Part shown: positions 2-60,742 of the stretch, one piece after another
Numbering within the stretch: position 1 is the stretch's first letter
Layout: every line of letters begins with the position of its first letter
Assembly: GCA_016432645.1 (NCBI GenBank)
Contig: CP066698.1
Coordinates: 197,062 to 261,061, forward strand
Length of the DNA stretch: 64,000 nt
Source: Candidatus Falkowbacteria bacterium
GTDB lineage: Bacteria; Patescibacteriota; Patescibacteriia; Patescibacteriales; UBA12465
Direction: 5' to 3'
Program-made: the position numbers and the translations under genes
Notes under the pieces: generated by a model
What the model was told of the DNA's origin: nothing
Databases searched by the model: none
Seen by the model: only the letters and a program-made list of their open reading frames with translations

Positions 2-1081
2 AGCAAACCCACTCCGGAAACAATCGCCGAAATGAAAACTTTAGGCGAAAGAATTAAGAAATTGGAAGAAGATTTGAATACGACGGAAACAGAGTTTTTG
101 GAAGCTATGTCAGAATTGCCAAATATACCGGCCGCTGATGTCTTGCCGGGAGGTAAAGAAAATAATGAGGTTATCCATACTTATGGCCAAAAACCAAAGT
201 TTGATTTCGAGCCCAAGGATCACGTCGAACTAGCAACTTCCTTAGGTTTAGTCGATTATGAGCGGGCGGCGAAAATGTCCGGTTCTGGCTTCTGGTGCTA
301 TACCGGAGTCGGGGCGCAATTAGAATGGGCCTTGCTTAATTATTTTATTGATTTTCATACCAAGAATGGCTATCAATTCTTGATTCCACCATTTTTACTG
401 ACTGAAAAGTCAGCTTATACTTCCGGACATCTGCCGAAATTCCGCGATGATTTATTTTGGACTCAGGATGCACTCTGCTTGAATGCCACCAGTGAGATGA
501 TGCTGGGTAATTATCATCGCGATGAAATCTTACCGATTGAAGAACTGCCTAAAAAATATTTTGCCTACTCGGCTTGTTTTAGAAGGGAAGCGGGTAGTTA
601 TCGCCAGGAAGAGCGCGGTATGATTCGTGGCCATCAGTTCAATAAAATTGAAATGTTTATTTTTTCTAAACCGGAAGAAAGCTGGAAAATGTTTGCTGAG
701 ATGGTTAATAATGCCCAAAAGTTGATGGAGGGTTTAAATCTTAATTTCCAAATTTCTAAATTGGCAGCGGGTGATGCCAGCGCCGCGATGGCTAAGACTT
801 ATGACATTGAAGTTTATATACCAAGCATGGGTATTTATAAGGAAGTTAGCAGCGCCTCTAACGCCCTTGATTACCAGGCGCGTCGCGGACAAGTTCGTTA
901 TAAAAATCCCGCGACCGGCAAGAATGAATTTGTCCATACTCTAAATGCTTCCGGTTTGGCGACTAGCCGCTTGTTACCGGCGATTTTAGAGCAAAACCAA
1001 CAGGCTGACGGCTCGGTTATTATTCCAAAAGTTTTGCGCCAGTATTTACCGAAGAGGATGAAAGTAATCAAAAAAGCTTAA
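2..1081 (+). CDS. serS: seryl-tRNA synthetase, C-terminal ~360 aa (5' end is outside the window)
   Basis: Class II aaRS core in the translation (FRREAGS, GHQFNKIEMF, TLNASGLATSRLL). The reading frame stays open upstream of the listed ATG at 32, back to position 2. Confidence 0.9.
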   Translation, partial: SKPTPETIAEMKTLGERIKKLEEDLNTTETEFLEAMSELPNIPAADVLPGGKENNEVIHTYGQKPKFDFEPKDHVELATSLGLVDYERAAKMSGSGFWCYTGVGAQLEWALLNYFIDFHTKNGYQFLIPPFLLTEKSAYTSGHLPKFRDDLFWTQDALCLNATSEMMLGNYHRDEILPIEELPKKYFAYSACFRREAGSYRQEERGMIRGHQFNKIEMFIFSKPEESWKMFAEMVNNAQKLMEGLNLNFQISKLAAGDASAAMAKTYDIEVYIPSMGIYKEVSSASNALDYQARRGQVRYKNPATGKNEFVHTLNASGLATSRLLPAILEQNQQADGSVIIPKVLRQYLPKRMKVIKKA

Positions 1082-36051: not shown

Positions 36052-36582
36052 TTATTTTTTCTCACTGATAGCCTTTAAGACACCAACAAAATTTCTCAAG
36101 TTGCCGGCTAAAACATTGACAAAGCCGGAGATTGGAGCATTCATGGAACCAACCAACTTGGCGTATAATTCCTGCTTGCTTGGCAATTTAGCTAAAGCCT
36201 CAACCTGATCTTTGGATAATAGCTTATTTTCTAAGATACCGCCCAAAAAGACAATTTTATTTTCCTTTTCTTTATCCTTACGAAATTCGCCTAAAATTTT
36301 AGCGGGAGAAACCTCATCTTCATAGGAAAAGATAGCGGCCACTTTACCATCAAAATCTCTAGCATTTAAGCTGGCAACGTTTTGATCCTTGAAGGCAATA
36401 TTCATTAAGGTCTTCTTGGCAACGTAATATTCGTTATTTCCGGCAATCAATTTTGCGCGCAAATTTTCATTATCCTTAACTCCGAAGGCATTAAAACCGG
36501 CGAAGATAACAGATTTTGATTTTTTGATTTTTTCGCTTAAATTACGTAAAATCTCTTGTTTTTGAATTTTATTCTTTGGCAT
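36052..36582 (-). CDS. rplJ: 50S ribosomal protein L10 (true start MPKNKIQKQE at 36582; the longer ORF-track N-terminus runs through the leader)
   Basis: L10-like sequence and ~176-aa length from the internal ATG. The upstream 87 nt overlap a structured leader. Confidence 0.85.
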   Translation of the reverse strand: MPKNKIQKQEILRNLSEKIKKSKSVIFAGFNAFGVKDNENLRAKLIAGNNEYYVAKKTLMNIAFKDQNVASLNARDFDGKVAAIFSYEDEVSPAKILGEFRKDKEKENKIVFLGGILENKLLSKDQVEALAKLPSKQELYAKLVGSMNAPISGFVNVLAGNLRNFVGVLKAISEKK

Positions 36583-36695
36583 ATAATAAAAAATCTGTGG
36601 TACCACAGATGTAAAAAACGCTAAAAAGCGGATAATTACCTCGGCAAGATTTACGGCCGAAGCGGCCACTTGCTGTCTGTGGTATCTTTAGTTAT
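36583..36695 (-). promoter_or_regulatory. ribosomal protein L10 leader-like structured 5' UTR
   Basis: Long-range stem ACCACAGA...TCTGTGGT enclosing hairpins GGCCG-AAG-CGGCC and CGCT-AAAA-AGCG. Its position in front of rplJ matches known L10(L12)4 autoregulatory leaders. Confidence 0.55.
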
Positions 36696-36701
36696 GGGTA
36701 T

Positions 36702-52618: not shown

Positions 52619-55600
52619 TTAGTTACTAATGGTGGTACCAGAAAGAGTGGTTGTGCCTAATCTCAAAGGAGATTTAGCAGTAGCAGATGAAGAGTCTTTC
52701 CAAGTAATGTTAGCCATGTTAGCAACTGGGGAGCCAGTAACGGCAACCGTGCTGTCCATGTTATCTAAGCTTACATTAATAGAAACTGCCCCAGCATCGG
52801 TTACAGTGAAGGTAGGAGTTACCTTAACTAAGAAGTAAGCAGTTGTGCCTGGCATTACTTCAAAGTCAGCACCTGTGATACCGGTAGTGAAGCTGCTATA
52901 ACCAACACCCGTGGTTTGCAAATCCGCAATAGCTGACCCAGCCTTAGCGCCAGCAGTACCACCTATTCTTTCAATAGTGGAAGCAGTAGAACTTGCGTTA
53001 CCAGTAACCTTGACCTTAAATCCGTTGATATATGTCTTGACGGCATCACCATTAGATTCTGTGTTAGAGGAAGCATCAGCAGTTACGGCAATAATAGCAG
53101 TATTAGCAGCTTGACCGCTGTAAATCTTAGTAGAAACAGCGTTGCCAGAGTAACTAGAAACTAAAGCAACAGAAGACATTCTTGAAGCAAGAATACCTAG
53201 AGACTTAGAAGCTCCAGTTACAGTTCCAGAAGCAGTAATAGTACCATCATTATTGTTGTCATATCCTAACTCACCAGACTCTAAATTGGTGTCAGCGTCA
53301 GAGGCAACTAAAGAATCGCCAGAATCAAATCCTTGAGCTTCAATACCGTTGATAGTAAAGGTAATGTCCTTATCAAGAGCACCTGTTGCATCCTTACCAA
53401 TCTTAGATAAAGTTGCTTTCAAGTAATAACTCTTGGAAGACATTGGAACTACTAATTTATCGCCAGAGATATCAATAGTAGAATCTGTAGCAATCACGTT
53501 GGTTGAGCCTACTAAAGTAGAACCGTCATATAAAGCTAATTCGGAAACAATGCCATTGATATTTTCGCTAGCAATAACGTGTAGCTTGGTAACCTTTACA
53601 GTTTCGTTTTCCGCTCTCAATTTAAGAGCAGCAACACTACCGGTGGTGGTGTTAGCAACTTGATAAATATCCTTGCTAACAGCAGTGTCATTGGTGTCCA
53701 TAGAAATGTATAAAGCACCAGTGCCAGCTAAAGTGATGGTTCGAGCAGAAGTGGCAACAGAGCCAGATTCTGAAACATCTTTACCATCAACGTCTTCAAC
53801 GGTTGCACCGTTGATACCCATTTGCAGGGTTTTAGTTGAAGAATCGGTATTCTTTACAAATGATACAGTTACTTTATAGGTAACGGTAGTATTTGCGGCA
53901 ATCTCTTCATTTAAATCAGTGAAAGTTAAATCACTTCCGCTAATTTGAGAAGAAGACATGCTCTTTACTAAAGTAGTGCCCTTCCAAAGTTTAAGTCCGG
54001 AGATAGTTTGGGTTGAGAAACCTAAATTACCAGCGATCTTACTGACAGTTAAATCTCTAACATAGGCGTTAGAATTTGAAGCAGCCTTAACGTTGAAATT
54101 CAAAACTTCAACATCAGGAGTGCCGATAACTGCAGTGAAGGCAGATGATAAGGCATTCAAAGAGAAAGTAGCGCCAACTCCTTCAATAGTAACTTTCTTA
54201 AGTTCTACAGTATTAGGAGTGATGTCTGTGATAGCTGTATCATTGCCAGTTTCCTTAATGATCAAATCAGTTGAAGCATCAGCAATTTTTACAGTGTAAT
54301 CCTTGTCAGCGGATGCAGTTAATGTATCAAATCTGACAACTAATTCGTTAGTAACGCCGCTTGTCAACATTAGTCCCATGCTAGTATTGCTATAAACTTT
54401 AGTAGCAGTACCAGAAACGTAGGCTAAGTCATAAACAGTGTTATTTGTCTTGTTATATACTTCTACATTTTCAATCTTAGTAAAAGCAGCGGCTGTACCC
54501 TGGTTATCATTAGTTGTAGTGATGCTTAATTTCAAAGTTGATAATTCAGCATTCTTACCACTATTTACAGTAACCTTGAAAGTACCAGCTTCTTGGTTGT
54601 CAACATCTACTCTTAATTTATCATTGGCAGCGTTAACCTTTTCTACGCTGATAGTACCAGCTTTGATGGTTGCTAATAAAGCAGCACCAGTTGCTGTACC
54701 AGATACTGTTGTCTGATAACCATAATAGTCACCAGTTGCAGTAATATCAGAAGCGGATTCAAGATAAAGACCAATGGTCTTTGCAGCGCCATCAACTACA
54801 TCAGCAGTAACAGTTAATCTCTTATTAGCTGTATTTTTGTTGATTGTAATTGGGGTAGCTAAATTGAAGGTAACATAGCGGCTAGAAATTGAAGCGGCTG
54901 CTGCAACTTCCTTACCATCAAAGTTTAACTTCAAATTTTCAACAACGCTGTCAGAAGCAGTGCTTAAAGAGTCTTTCTTTAAAGTAACAGCTTTTACAAC
55001 AATGTTTTCAACGTTAGCATTATTAGATAATTTGAATTTGGCAATGGTAGCCCCCTTATCACCAAGTTTAACCTCGGATAAAGCAGAACCGTCTTTGTCA
55101 AAAACTAAATCACCAACAGTAACGGTAACTCCGGAAAAGATATTACCAGCAACTGGGAATGAACCGGAAACAGTGTTTCCAGCCATAACATCAGTAGCCT
55201 TAGCAATGCTTAAACCATGTTTACCAGTATCGCCAACAGTAGCTCTTACTTCAAAAGTAGCAGTTGTCCCAGCTGGGATAGTAACGGCGTTTGTGAAGTT
55301 AATTTGAGCTTCCTTATTAGAGTCAATATTACGTGCAGTGCTGTTTAATTTAACGTTGTTCTTATAAACAGAGATAGCGGTAATTTGAGATGGGGTGCCT
55401 AATCCAATAGCAGTTAATTTAACGCCAGAAACGATAGCATCGCCATCATTAGCGGCTGTTACATTAAACTTTAAAAGAGGATTAGAAGTACCAGTTGGGA
55501 TGTCATTAGAAGCTGGGGTGTTTGAGCTTAAAGAAACCATAACACCAGAACCAACTACAACATTACCAACGCTACCACCTTGTGCATCATTAGTTAAACC

Positions 55601-56260
55601 AGCTTCAGCAGCAGTGATGGCGGAACCGCCAGCAGTGATGGTGTTGCTGATAGTAATGATGTTGCCCATCGCGAAGCGATTAGCAGCTAAAGCAGATTCG
55701 GAAGCGATAGAACGATAGTTAGTACCGTCGTAGTAATATACGGCAGCGCTAGAAGCGTTCTTTACTAAAGAACCGGCAGGGACTGCACCATCAGCTAAAG
55801 CAGCGCCGATAGTGTAGTTAGTGAAGAAAGAGTCAGCGACATCGACAACTCTCTTGCTCCAGTTGGTGCCGTATAAAGCAGCAGCTTGAGCTTCACTTTG
55901 AATCTTTCTTAAAACGCCATTTGGTTCAACAGCGTATACAGAAGGATCAGTTGTAATCTTCACGAGCTTAGTACCCGGTCTCATAGTTACATTGCCGCCT
56001 AATGGGTAGCTTTGTAATTCAGATGCTGGGATAGTGACAACGCCACTGAAATCAGCATGCCAAGACATGTAGGTAGCTTCATTCGGGAAGACATATCTCT
56101 TGCCGTCGGAACCAAGGTAGTAGACAGAGGATAAACCATCCATCTTAATCAAGTCACCTGCAGAAGCAGCAGCTGAAGCCGGAGCTACAACTAAACCGCT
56201 CATAGCGATAACTGATAATACCATTACGCCGACAACTAAGAATTTGCGTAATTTATTCAT
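52619..56260 (-). CDS. 1213-aa secreted, T/S/A/V/N/G-rich, Cys-free surface-layer-like protein
   Basis: Signal peptide (VAPASA|AAS). Two N-terminal VYY(L/Y).DG.(K/N)YR..(P/A).. modules, then ~1000 aa of repetitive beta-rich sequence. Very strong terminator. Confidence 0.7.
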   Translation of the reverse strand: MNKLRKFLVVGVMVLSVIAMSGLVVAPASAAASAGDLIKMDGLSSVYYLGSDGKRYVFPNEATYMSWHADFSGVVTIPASELQSYPLGGNVTMRPGTKLVKITTDPSVYAVEPNGVLRKIQSEAQAAALYGTNWSKRVVDVADSFFTNYTIGAALADGAVPAGSLVKNASSAAVYYYDGTNYRSIASESALAANRFAMGNIITISNTITAGGSAITAAEAGLTNDAQGGSVGNVVVGSGVMVSLSSNTPASNDIPTGTSNPLLKFNVTAANDGDAIVSGVKLTAIGLGTPSQITAISVYKNNVKLNSTARNIDSNKEAQINFTNAVTIPAGTTATFEVRATVGDTGKHGLSIAKATDVMAGNTVSGSFPVAGNIFSGVTVTVGDLVFDKDGSALSEVKLGDKGATIAKFKLSNNANVENIVVKAVTLKKDSLSTASDSVVENLKLNFDGKEVAAAASISSRYVTFNLATPITINKNTANKRLTVTADVVDGAAKTIGLYLESASDITATGDYYGYQTTVSGTATGAALLATIKAGTISVEKVNAANDKLRVDVDNQEAGTFKVTVNSGKNAELSTLKLSITTTNDNQGTAAAFTKIENVEVYNKTNNTVYDLAYVSGTATKVYSNTSMGLMLTSGVTNELVVRFDTLTASADKDYTVKIADASTDLIIKETGNDTAITDITPNTVELKKVTIEGVGATFSLNALSSAFTAVIGTPDVEVLNFNVKAASNSNAYVRDLTVSKIAGNLGFSTQTISGLKLWKGTTLVKSMSSSQISGSDLTFTDLNEEIAANTTVTYKVTVSFVKNTDSSTKTLQMGINGATVEDVDGKDVSESGSVATSARTITLAGTGALYISMDTNDTAVSKDIYQVANTTTGSVAALKLRAENETVKVTKLHVIASENINGIVSELALYDGSTLVGSTNVIATDSTIDISGDKLVVPMSSKSYYLKATLSKIGKDATGALDKDITFTINGIEAQGFDSGDSLVASDADTNLESGELGYDNNNDGTITASGTVTGASKSLGILASRMSSVALVSSYSGNAVSTKIYSGQAANTAIIAVTADASSNTESNGDAVKTYINGFKVKVTGNASSTASTIERIGGTAGAKAGSAIADLQTTGVGYSSFTTGITGADFEVMPGTTAYFLVKVTPTFTVTDAGAVSINVSLDNMDSTVAVTGSPVANMANITWKDSSSATAKSPLRLGTTTLSGTTISN

Positions 56261-58887: not shown

Positions 58888-58913
58888 CTTATTTCCTTAA
58901 AACCGTTGCCTAT

Positions 58914-58946
58914 AAAAAAGCCCCTCTGACAAGGAGGGGCTTTTTG
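58914..58946 (+). terminator. terminator after the HTH gene (GCCCCTC-N7-GAGGGGC plus T5)
   Basis: GC stem plus T-run. Confidence 0.8.
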
Positions 58947-58986
58947 TTTTAAGCGGAGTTTATCTGACATCAGTTATAATACTTTT

Positions 58987-59064
58987 GATGTGGGCCCGGG
59001 AGTGGTCTCCGTGGCCAGATTTAGCACCCGGCTTCCGGGGTTCGATTCCCCGCGGGTCCACATC
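58987..59064 (+). ncRNA. tRNA-like cloverleaf RNA that is not a canonical tRNA
   Basis: 12-bp terminal stem (GATGTGGGCCCG / CGGGTCCACATC), with G:U at the third pair of the inner 7 bp. Mini D-like hairpin GGAG-UGGU-CUCC. 4-bp stem with a 13-nt loop. Canonical T-arm CGGGG-TTCGATT-CCCCG. TATAAT at 58975-58980. Confidence 0.6.
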
Positions 59065-59096
59065 TGGTTTGGGCTTAATTGATAACCAAAAAAATA

Positions 59097-59125
59097 TTGA
59101 CTAAGCTTGTCGCTTTTGCTATAAT
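59097..59125 (+). promoter_or_regulatory. near-consensus promoter TTGACT-N17-TATAAT
   Basis: Hexamers at 59097-59102 and 59120-59125. Confidence 0.7.
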
Positions 59126-59131
59126 AAATTT

Positions 59132-59209
59132 TACGAGTGCTAAATCTGGCGACAATATACAAGACCATTCTGAAGTGTGAAAAACCTCTCCTAAACGGAG
59201 AGGTTTTTT
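59132..59209 (+). ncRNA. candidate ~78-nt sRNA (promoter to terminator)
   Basis: Starts ~7 nt after the -10 and ends at the ACCTCTCC-TAAAC-GGAGAGGT plus T6 terminator. Nucleotides 59137-59150 are the exact reverse complement of 59014-59027 in the tRNA-like RNA. Confidence 0.6.
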
Positions 59210-59235
59210 ATTTACCCGCAAGTCTTCATCCGGCA

Positions 59236-59274
59236 AAATAAAAACCACCTTGGATTCCGTCAAGGTGGTTTTTG
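59236..59274 (-). terminator. terminator of the HU gene (ACCACCTTG-N8-CAAGGTGGT)
   Basis: 9-bp stem with T-runs on both strands. Confidence 0.8.
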
Positions 59275-59321
59275 TATATGAGAAACTAAAGTTCTCGGAG
59301 GATAACTGTGTAAGCTAAATA

Positions 59322-60566: not shown

Positions 60567-60643
60567 TGGTGGTCGCTAGTGGATTCGAACCACTGACCTC
60601 CGCGATGTGAACGCGGCGCTCTAACCAGCTGAGCCAAGCGACC
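60567..60643 (-). tRNA. tRNA-Val (anticodon CAC), CCA encoded
   Basis: Manual cloverleaf: acceptor GGTCGCT/AGCGACC, D-arm GCTC...GAGC, anticodon arm CCGCG-TTCACAT-CGCGG, T-arm AGTGG-TTCGAAT-CCACT, ACCA. Confidence 0.9.
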
Positions 60644-60658
60644 ATTTCCATTTTAAGG

Positions 60659-60742
60659 TGCCCAGAGGGGGATTTGAACCCCCACAGGATTGCTCCTACA
60701 GCGTTCTGAACACTGCGTGTCTACCAATTTCACCATCTGGGC
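60659..60742 (-). tRNA. tRNA-Leu (anticodon CAG), long variable arm
   Basis: Acceptor GCCCAGA/TCTGGGC, anticodon arm CAGTG-TTCAGAA-CGCTG, variable arm AGGA-GCAA-TCCT, T-arm GGGGG-TTCAAAT-CCCCC. Confidence 0.9.

Follow-up and report, generated by a model that had tools for sequence, protein, structure and literature searches.

A tRNA-Ala-like RNA and a complementary small RNA encoded side by side in Patescibacteria

Why should a small RNA (sRNA) gene with a strong promoter of its own carry, from the predicted start of its transcript, the complement of a tRNA-like RNA encoded just upstream on the same strand? The question is raised by a 64-kb stretch of Candidatus Falkowbacteria DNA (39% G+C; all 64,000 nucleotides of it are hereafter the window), in which the two genes lie between an open reading frame (ORF) of 100 amino acids and the gene for HU. 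The initial annotation had noticed a 14-nt complement between them and proposed a two-RNA module, either resembling transfer-messenger RNA (tmRNA) or acting through a kissing loop. On our analysis, the module looks like a new RNA family that works as a cognate antisense pair with a new kind of target, a tRNA mimic with alanine identity. A full-text literature search found no description of such a module. Coordinates below refer to the forward strand of the window, unless they follow an L number, our handle for a related locus.

Complementarity and co-evolution of the two RNAs

The reported complement was recovered exactly: GTGCTAAATCTGGC (59137-59150) is the reverse complement of GCCAGATTTAGCAC (59014-59027), and each of these 14-mers occurs once in the window. 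A chance expectation of about 1e-4 had been estimated for the 14/14 match, which is consistent with 2000 shuffles of the 300-nt flank, where the longest match was 12 nt and never 14. Across the whole window, exact inverted 14-mers no more than 300 nt apart were found as 7 position pairs (four loci plus the present one). The original observation was confirmed but understated, as the complementarity is larger. A first block (59134-59153) pairs with the 5' strand and loop of an anticodon-like arm (59011-59030) at 18 of 20 positions, 14 bp of them forming the exact match, and a second block, AGACCAUUCU at 59161-59170, pairs with a mini D arm, GGAGUGGUCU at 58999-59008, through 10 bp that include 2 G.U pairs (RNAduplex). 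Together the blocks make 28 bp with a predicted energy of about -43 to -45 kcal/mol (RNAduplex).

Relatives were collected by searching one genome per species with the 22-nt 3' end of the element. The resulting 69 loci fell into two classes, genuine Patescibacteria tRNA-Ala(GGC) genes and 38 distinct tRNA-like elements of 67-69 nt, and in 38/38 of the latter a complement of the element's own central region was present 41-73 nt downstream. Pairing throughout the family consists of two constant blocks (loop and 5' stem strand, then D arm to about G7) with a total of 22-30 bp. Co-occurrence and co-variation, which the initial annotation had suggested looking for in related genomes, were thus both found, with each element having its own complement.

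Close relatives illustrate how the complementarity is maintained. Their scaffold is invariant; the anticodon-like arm is wholly different, and the 5' end of the sRNA is altered in step. The element and sRNA of L001 match exactly at 17/17 positions, while in L005 element 1 forms 22 bp with sRNA-a (one G.U) and element 2 pairs with sRNA-d over 20 positions (one mismatch, one G.U). Over the whole family, cognate duplexes averaged -38.5 kcal/mol versus -19.9 kcal/mol for 1406 non-cognate combinations, and the cognate sRNA ranked first for 28 of the 38 elements. As a control, real tRNAs that happen to have a consensus promoter downstream in a metagenome scan gave -7 to -20 kcal/mol, compared to -27 to -50 kcal/mol for module members in the same scan. 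Compensatory changes therefore keep the complementarity in every lineage, and the sRNA is the specific partner of its tRNA-like RNA, as had been supposed. Adjacency, separate transcription units and extended, co-evolving, pair-specific complementarity are what define a cognate antisense pair, and the module has all of them.

The imperfections of the duplexes indicate the level at which selection acts. We delimited complementary blocks by a wobble-blind criterion before counting mismatches, and found 37 G.U (read on the transcribed strand) against 5 A.C transition mismatches (p = 4e-7). Such an asymmetry is expected for RNA-RNA pairing and not for a DNA inverted repeat, and indicates selection on RNA. 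An explanation at the DNA level, be it an invertible promoter switch, a recombination site or a relic of chance or duplication, is highly improbable in light of this bias. Its appeal lies in the layout, since inverted repeats that flank a promoter-bearing segment of ~100 bp are typical of invertons, and in signs of past duplications and deletions (the arrays and the remnant 3' end described below). However, the segment has the same orientation in all of the at least 38 loci, the internal loop between the blocks is asymmetric, and chance is excluded by the shuffles and by conservation. With the 37:5 bias, the single orientation and no recombinase linked to the locus, we did not class the module as an inverton.

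The sRNA itself is probably an autonomous transcription unit, as initially annotated. Its near-consensus promoter (TTGACT-N17-TATAAT, 59097-59125) was confirmed at 11/12 consensus positions and has a TG extension, and promoter geometry and the terminator T run place the ends of a ~77-nt sRNA at 59133 and 59209. The strong terminator (59180-59209; A-tract, 8-12-bp stem, loop UAAAC, T6) also held up: it is Rho-independent, bidirectional in form, and visible in the fold and as a perfect 12-nt inverted repeat (59180-59191 / 59197-59208) followed by the T run. An automatic terminator scan missed it because the A-tract and T-tract lengthen the stem. Across the family, a promoter of the form TTGACn-16..18-TAnnnT occurs in 37/38 spacers versus 3.2% of shuffled spacers; a TG extension accompanies it in 31, and the first paired base lies a median of 7 nt beyond the -10 box, at the predicted transcription start. 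Downstream of the pairing region, family sRNAs carry a GAGAC/GAAAC/GAAGC motif, an A-rich stretch and a terminator, with a median total length of 71 nt.

The same evidence bears on whether there are two RNAs at all. A single RNA of ~220 nt could be made from the upstream promoter and fold by long-range pairing, the internal promoter being incidental; no terminator separates the genes, and the minimum-free-energy fold of 58985-59209 (-83 kcal/mol) does use the long-range helix. We consider this quite improbable, given how far the promoter frequency in the spacers exceeds chance and how precisely its start coincides with the first paired base. Moreover, some cognate sRNAs lie upstream of their target (L005 sRNA-a, L040) and others stand alone with their own promoter and terminator. 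Those located upstream can act in trans only.

The tRNA-like element and its family

The element resembles an alanine tRNA with a reduced interior. On the basis of tmRNA-model ends, constrained folds and family covariation, we predicted a 69-nt cloverleaf at 58992-59060. Constrained folds give it a 7-bp acceptor stem with G3:U70 (58992-58998/59053-59059), a mini D arm with a 4-bp stem (GGAG-UGGU-CUCC, 58999-59010) and an anticodon-like arm (59011-59035) with an imperfect 8-bp stem and a 9-nt loop, AUUUAGCAC, at 59019-59027. A canonical T arm (59036-59052) follows directly, with no variable loop, and A73 is at 59060.

Upstream, a -10 box (TATAAT, 58975-58980) ends 11 nt before G1 with no recognisable -35, so that a 5-nt leader, GAUGU (58987-58991), should begin at the transcription start. 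The leader pairs with A73 and the trailer CAUC (59060-59064), lengthening the acceptor helix to 12 bp (inverted repeat 58987-58998 / 59053-59064). In 37/38 relatives a -10 box precedes G1 by 8-12 nt (5 nt in a single outlier), and matches to a -35 box among family members are at chance level (mean 2.2/6). The mimic therefore has a -10 box only, versus -35, TG and -10 elements for the sRNA. A scan of the trailer and spacer (59061-59096) found no terminator-like site, and with no intrinsic terminator there, tRNA-like transcripts can read into the sRNA gene. A 39-codon ORF over the tRNA-like gene (58988-59107) starts at an ATG inside the leader (gATGt); we judged it to be non-coding, as lineages with other leaders lack the ATG.

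Existing detectors do not recognise the element, which falls between those for tRNA and those for tmRNA and in this respect presents an annotation issue. ARAGORN made no call for 58992-59060, and Rfam at gathering thresholds gave no match at the locus; the element belongs to no Rfam 15 family. The Rfam tmRNA model aligned at 31.2 bits (gathering score, 47) to both ends only, with 328 internal model positions reduced to 25 nt. Permissive Rfam matches (mascRNA, which is another tRNA mimic, PyrR, RNAI and leader peptides) were discounted as below threshold and reflecting a generic tRNA-like or terminator shape. Nor is the element a regular tRNA: in folds its D arm is reduced, the variable loop is absent and the anticodon-like loop is 7-9 nt long, where a canonical tRNA has a 7-nt anticodon loop, purine 37, a variable loop and an 8-9 linker.

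The nearest relative is clear from the ends of the molecule. Acceptor stem and T arm are identical to those of tRNA-Ala(GGC) genes of related Patescibacteria found in the same scan, including G3:U70 and A73, which makes the element a tRNA-Ala derivative rather than demonstrably a tmRNA domain. It differs from the genuine tRNA in its length of 67-69 nt, in lacking the 8-9 linker and the variable loop, in the non-Ala triplets of its loop and in its paired leader and trailer (mean of 3.9 consecutive pairs in the family versus 0.2 in genuine tRNA-Ala genes). A covariance model built on the family separates the two (69-92 bits for members, 31-50 bits for tRNA-Ala, with real tRNA-Ala genes 20-40 bits lower) and scores the window element at 80.7 bits. 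The element is single-copy in the window, and no second module was found in the 64 kb.

Conservation of the fold was evaluated on the 38-sequence alignment. Cloverleaf helices are 94.7% paired versus 32-56% with slid partners, and covariation is 0.272 versus 0.104 in shuffles, with 0/500 reaching the observed value. Both-sided changes occur in the D stem, at the base of the anticodon-like stem and in the leader/trailer helix, whose pairs covary around an invariant U-1:A73. Dimensions vary modestly: the D stem has 3-4 bp with a 4-nt loop, and the anticodon-like stem 6-9 bp with a 7-9-nt loop. G3:U70 is kept in all seven acceptor-stem variants; other stems, in diverged copies and metagenome matches, are GGGGCCG, GGGCCCA, GGGGGUG, GGGCCGA and two forms of GGGCUCG, each such copy having its own promoter and complementary sRNA. 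This retention indicates that the alanine identity pair is under selection and suggests recognition by alanyl-tRNA synthetase (AlaRS).

Several observations concern the loops. The centre of the anticodon-like loop (59021-59023 in the window) reads UGA, UAA or UAG in 31/38 elements, counted without phylogenetic correction, within a U-U-R-R-C-A pattern. In another register, the same loop resembles a canonical U33-RRC-A37 anticodon loop with two additional 5' nucleotides. We also considered the loop as a -35 box and rejected it, there being no -10 box at the right spacing downstream. Two diverged Saccharibacteria members (L012, 5930-6013 and 2725-2809, minus strand) have a T loop of UGCAACU or UGCAAAU in place of UUCGAUU and a D loop without GG; these changes may represent co-variation of the elbow contact.

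The 38 elements come from Falkowbacteria, Saccharibacteria, Magasanikbacteria, Brennerbacteria, Spechtbacteria, unclassified Patescibacteria and some metagenome-assembled genomes (MAGs) labelled otherwise. Nine MAGs with the module (L018, L021, L034, L038, L050, L055, L059, L069 and L078) are labelled 'uncultured Gammaproteobacteria', which looks doubtful; L021 and L034 also have Falkowbacteria-type neighbours as in the window.

Single genomes encode several modules with different central arms, for example JAEHGX01 (L023, L040 and L041) and CAYSIJ01 (L018, L038 and L059). Three modules lie within a few kb of one another in both L078 (3849-6300), where they are interleaved with gatA and gatC on the opposite strand, and L012 (2725-6013). 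The array in L005 (2870-3650) has four sRNA genes and two elements, with one cognate sRNA upstream of its target and two orphan sRNAs. An orphan downstream sRNA in L040 fits the element of the window (-44 kcal/mol) better than its own neighbour. At the metagenome locus L085 (1496-1563 region), the module sRNA and the T arm/acceptor 3' half are present, and the 5' half is replaced by unrelated AT-rich sequence, so that the element appears disrupted. Subfamilies occupy fixed contexts: between the 100-amino-acid ORF and HU, between gatC-gatA and ligA, and between mnmA and parA.

What the pair may do

We favour a reading in which the dedicated antisense sRNA would invade the alanine-identity tRNA mimic through its loop and unzip it, neutralising it as a cognate antitoxin does its target, and give this a probability of roughly 0.55. 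Two small RNAs would be made from the same strand, the mimic with mature ends near 58992 and 59060 (RNA 1) and the sRNA at about 59133-59209 (RNA 2), the latter driven by the much stronger promoter and complementary from its first nucleotides. The unstructured 5' end of RNA 2 would dock on the exposed loop of RNA 1 as a toehold, take the place of the 3' strand in the anticodon-like stem and, past a short internal loop, go on to invade the D arm. The resulting 22-30-bp duplex would destroy the L-shaped fold, leaving only the acceptor/T minihelix, and would be a plausible substrate for RNase III. RNA 2 would thus be a sequence-addressed antagonist dedicated to RNA 1, in the manner of type I antisense antitoxins, but with an RNA mimic in place of an mRNA as its target. 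Transcripts of RNA 1 that read through would hold the antisense segment in cis, and the leader/trailer helix would lock the acceptor end, so that no activity is expected of such a precursor before processing.

The sequences show the complementarity with its co-evolution and specificity, the selection on RNA, and the conservation of promoters, terminators and G3:U70; that the RNAs are expressed and pair in vivo, what then becomes of the duplex and how the mimic acts are inferred. By analogy, the mimic would act on the translation apparatus, with AlaRS, EF-Tu, SmpB or the ribosome as candidate sites. A plausible activity is suggested by the passages of PMC4131195 and PMC11915505 citing Mao et al. 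2009, according to which a molecule consisting only of the tRNA-like domain strongly inhibits tmRNA, perhaps by titrating SmpB.

Several points weigh against this interpretation. Toxicity of the mimic is an analogy, not a result. A leader/trailer helix that was not removed would prevent charging, which sits uneasily with the conserved G3:U70. The fixed contexts beside housekeeping genes are as easily reconciled with ordinary regulation or housekeeping as with a module of the addiction type. No family member was found on viral contigs (IMG/VR), and with no recombinase nearby we also rejected a mobile or phage origin. The 22-nt query is shared with tRNA-Ala, so the breadth and diversity of the family are under-sampled.

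The direction of control could also be reversed, with the sRNA as an effector on mRNAs elsewhere and the tRNA-like RNA as its sponge or decoy, as tRNA-precursor spacers are in enterobacteria. Stable, structured tRNA-like RNAs would suit sponging, orphan sRNAs exist without an adjacent mimic, and the sRNA looks trans-acting (free 5' seed, A-rich stretch, terminator). However, no target of the seed in the window exceeded those of shuffled seeds (best -29.3 versus -29.6 kcal/mol), compared to -32 kcal/mol for the mimic with the seed alone and -43 kcal/mol in full. Among close relatives the seed is also hypervariable and changes together with the mimic, which does not sit easily with conserved mRNA targets, and sponging would leave the conserved G3:U70 and T arm unexplained. 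On balance we regard this reversal as unlikely.

A tmRNA-like function was one suggestion of the initial annotation. The specific RNA partner that it proposed stands; tmRNA-like coding does not, and the pairing goes beyond a loop contact, reaching the 5' stem strand and the D arm. Since the interaction spans all of these, full pairing would unfold the cloverleaf. The Ala-initiated 13-codon frame (GCT...TGA) that had been pointed out does exist in the window, but it is not conserved, and the idea of a tag fails with it: in 12/37 sRNAs the pairing region is not followed by a stop codon, whichever frame is read, and a GCN...stop frame is missing from 23/37. We therefore rejected the sRNA as a tmRNA message or tag.

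In its strongest form, the tmRNA idea would make the heteroduplex the active molecule, a bipartite rescue RNA with an Ala-charged acceptor/T minihelix on an intermolecular substitute for helix 2 and an sRNA tail serving as a mini message or without any tag. The interrupted helix of 22-30 bp is about as long as helix 2 of tmRNA, and the minihelix should still be chargeable with the sRNA bound, as minihelices are substrates of AlaRS. G3:U70 and the T arm are conserved, though being common to tRNA-Ala they do not discriminate, and the element aligns with the Rfam tmRNA model at its two ends. In ultra-small groundwater prokaryotes, Patescibacteria among them, smpB is reported to be highly expressed (PMC9938205), and tmRNAs without a tag occur in mitochondria, plastids and phage DS6A (PMC11915505).

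Against this, the module has no conserved reading frame and no pseudoknots, and its Rfam score of 31.2 bits is below the threshold of 47. ARAGORN found no tmRNA in the window or in related Patescibacteria loci. No smpB (tblastn) and no canonical ssrA were found in the ~640 kb of loci covered. In possessing both a D stem and an anticodon-like hairpin, the element resembles a tRNA. At least three copies per genome with different specificities, together with orphan sRNAs, argue against a housekeeping ssrA. Geometry is a further difficulty, because the T arm is joined by only 5-9 nt to the distal end of the duplex; complete pairing should therefore break, not extend, the tRNA-like architecture, and the link seems too short for the continuous helix of L034 and L063, where pairing runs uninterrupted over 30-31 nt. 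We consider a bipartite tmRNA improbable.

Comparison with described tmRNA forms leads to the same distinctions. Molecules reduced to the tRNA-like domain (phage DS6A, jakobid and oomycete mitochondria, some plastids) are similar in having ~65-70 nt, a G3:U70 acceptor, a T arm and no tag frame (PMC4131195, PMC11915505), and the latest tmRNA survey lists tag-less forms for organelles, phage DS6A and two bacterial groups only (PMC11915505). Unlike these, the present element has a D stem, an anticodon-like hairpin, the acceptor/T arm of tRNA-Ala(GGC), multiple copies and a paired leader and trailer, and it always comes with a cognate antisense sRNA, of which none has been described for tag-less tmRNAs. 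The two-piece permuted tmRNA (RF04321) likewise consists of two base-paired RNA pieces, one of which carries the Ala acceptor end. There, however, the acceptor stem is split between pieces from one precursor that has a tag frame and pseudoknots, whereas the module has a complete tRNA-like piece with an intramolecular acceptor stem, a partner with its own promoter and no frame, and scores 13.1 bits with that model (threshold, 47).

Antisense systems provide closer parallels for an sRNA that disarms its neighbour. Multi-copy type I (Ibs/Sib, Zor/Orz) and RNA-RNA type VIII toxin-antitoxin pairs are known cognate-specific antisense systems. As in the module, their genes are adjacent, the antisense RNA is short and driven by a strong promoter, the complementarity covers 18-30 nt, and there are several matched paralogues per genome, tandem arrays and orphan antisense genes. 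The target here, unlike that of type I pairs, is not the mRNA of a toxic peptide and has no conserved ORF, and several subfamilies are held stably between housekeeping genes. ColE1 RNA I/RNA II is comparable in that a cloverleaf-like RNA meets its complement at loops, from which pairing spreads to a long duplex, with loop and stem sequence setting specificity (incompatibility). Those RNAs are read from the two strands of one piece of DNA and regulate the priming of replication, whereas the module genes are separate, chromosomal and on the same strand.

If the antisense reading is right, many lineages of Patescibacteria, a huge and little-understood group of bacteria in which genomes are minimal and few regulators are known, carry an undescribed small-RNA pair: a tRNA-Ala derivative with the alanine identity pair, and its private, co-evolving antisense. 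Transfer RNA mimics would join the targets of dedicated antisense control, and the family would supply a natural collection of orthogonal RNA-RNA pairs. In Patescibacteria it could be relevant to the charging of alanine, to ribosome rescue or to conflict within the genome, and it is directly testable in cultured Saccharibacteria. A bolder and, in our view, rather unlikely extension is an RNA-only system that targets translation and is ancient in Patescibacteria. It would be either an antisense-gated, Ala-charged mimic (a tag-less rescue or poison RNA, hence an RNA toxin and RNA antitoxin derived from tRNA) or a heteroduplex that is analogous to tmRNA but encoded by two genes, its Ala minihelix carried by a helix 2 formed in trans; either way, genomes would hold several orthogonal pairs.

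The locus and other features of the window

The ORF of 100 amino acids upstream of the module is 100% identical to a protein of a Candidatus Falkowbacteria (Patescibacteria) MAG, and we used its homologues to gather the syntenic loci of relatives. The interval between this ORF and HU (58888-59321) varies among them and is a variable hotspot: it is empty in L008 and L010, holds a Gp49/helix-turn-helix toxin-antitoxin pair in L009 (2961-3618) and a Bro-N gene in L003 (2932-3777), and contains the tRNA-like element and sRNA, as in the window, in L001 (2969-3607), L005 and L006. A 212-amino-acid ORF of unknown function is also among the occupants. Linkage of the module to the upstream ORF or to HU was rejected, as both genes occur with or without it.

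What remains of a further tRNA-like 3' end, now degenerate, follows the sRNA terminator directly (59211-59239); it is 24/29 identical to L005 (3631-3649), where TTCCCCGCGGGTCCACATC is intact. The remnant suggests past arrays and deletions; we take it to be an array relic and do not think it functional. Elsewhere in the window, we identified a ribosomal protein L10 leader (36579-36700, minus strand; 54.8 bits), a gene for a secreted repeat protein of 1213 amino acids (52619-56260, minus strand) and genes for tRNA-Val(CAC) and tRNA-Leu(CAG) (60567-60742, minus strand).

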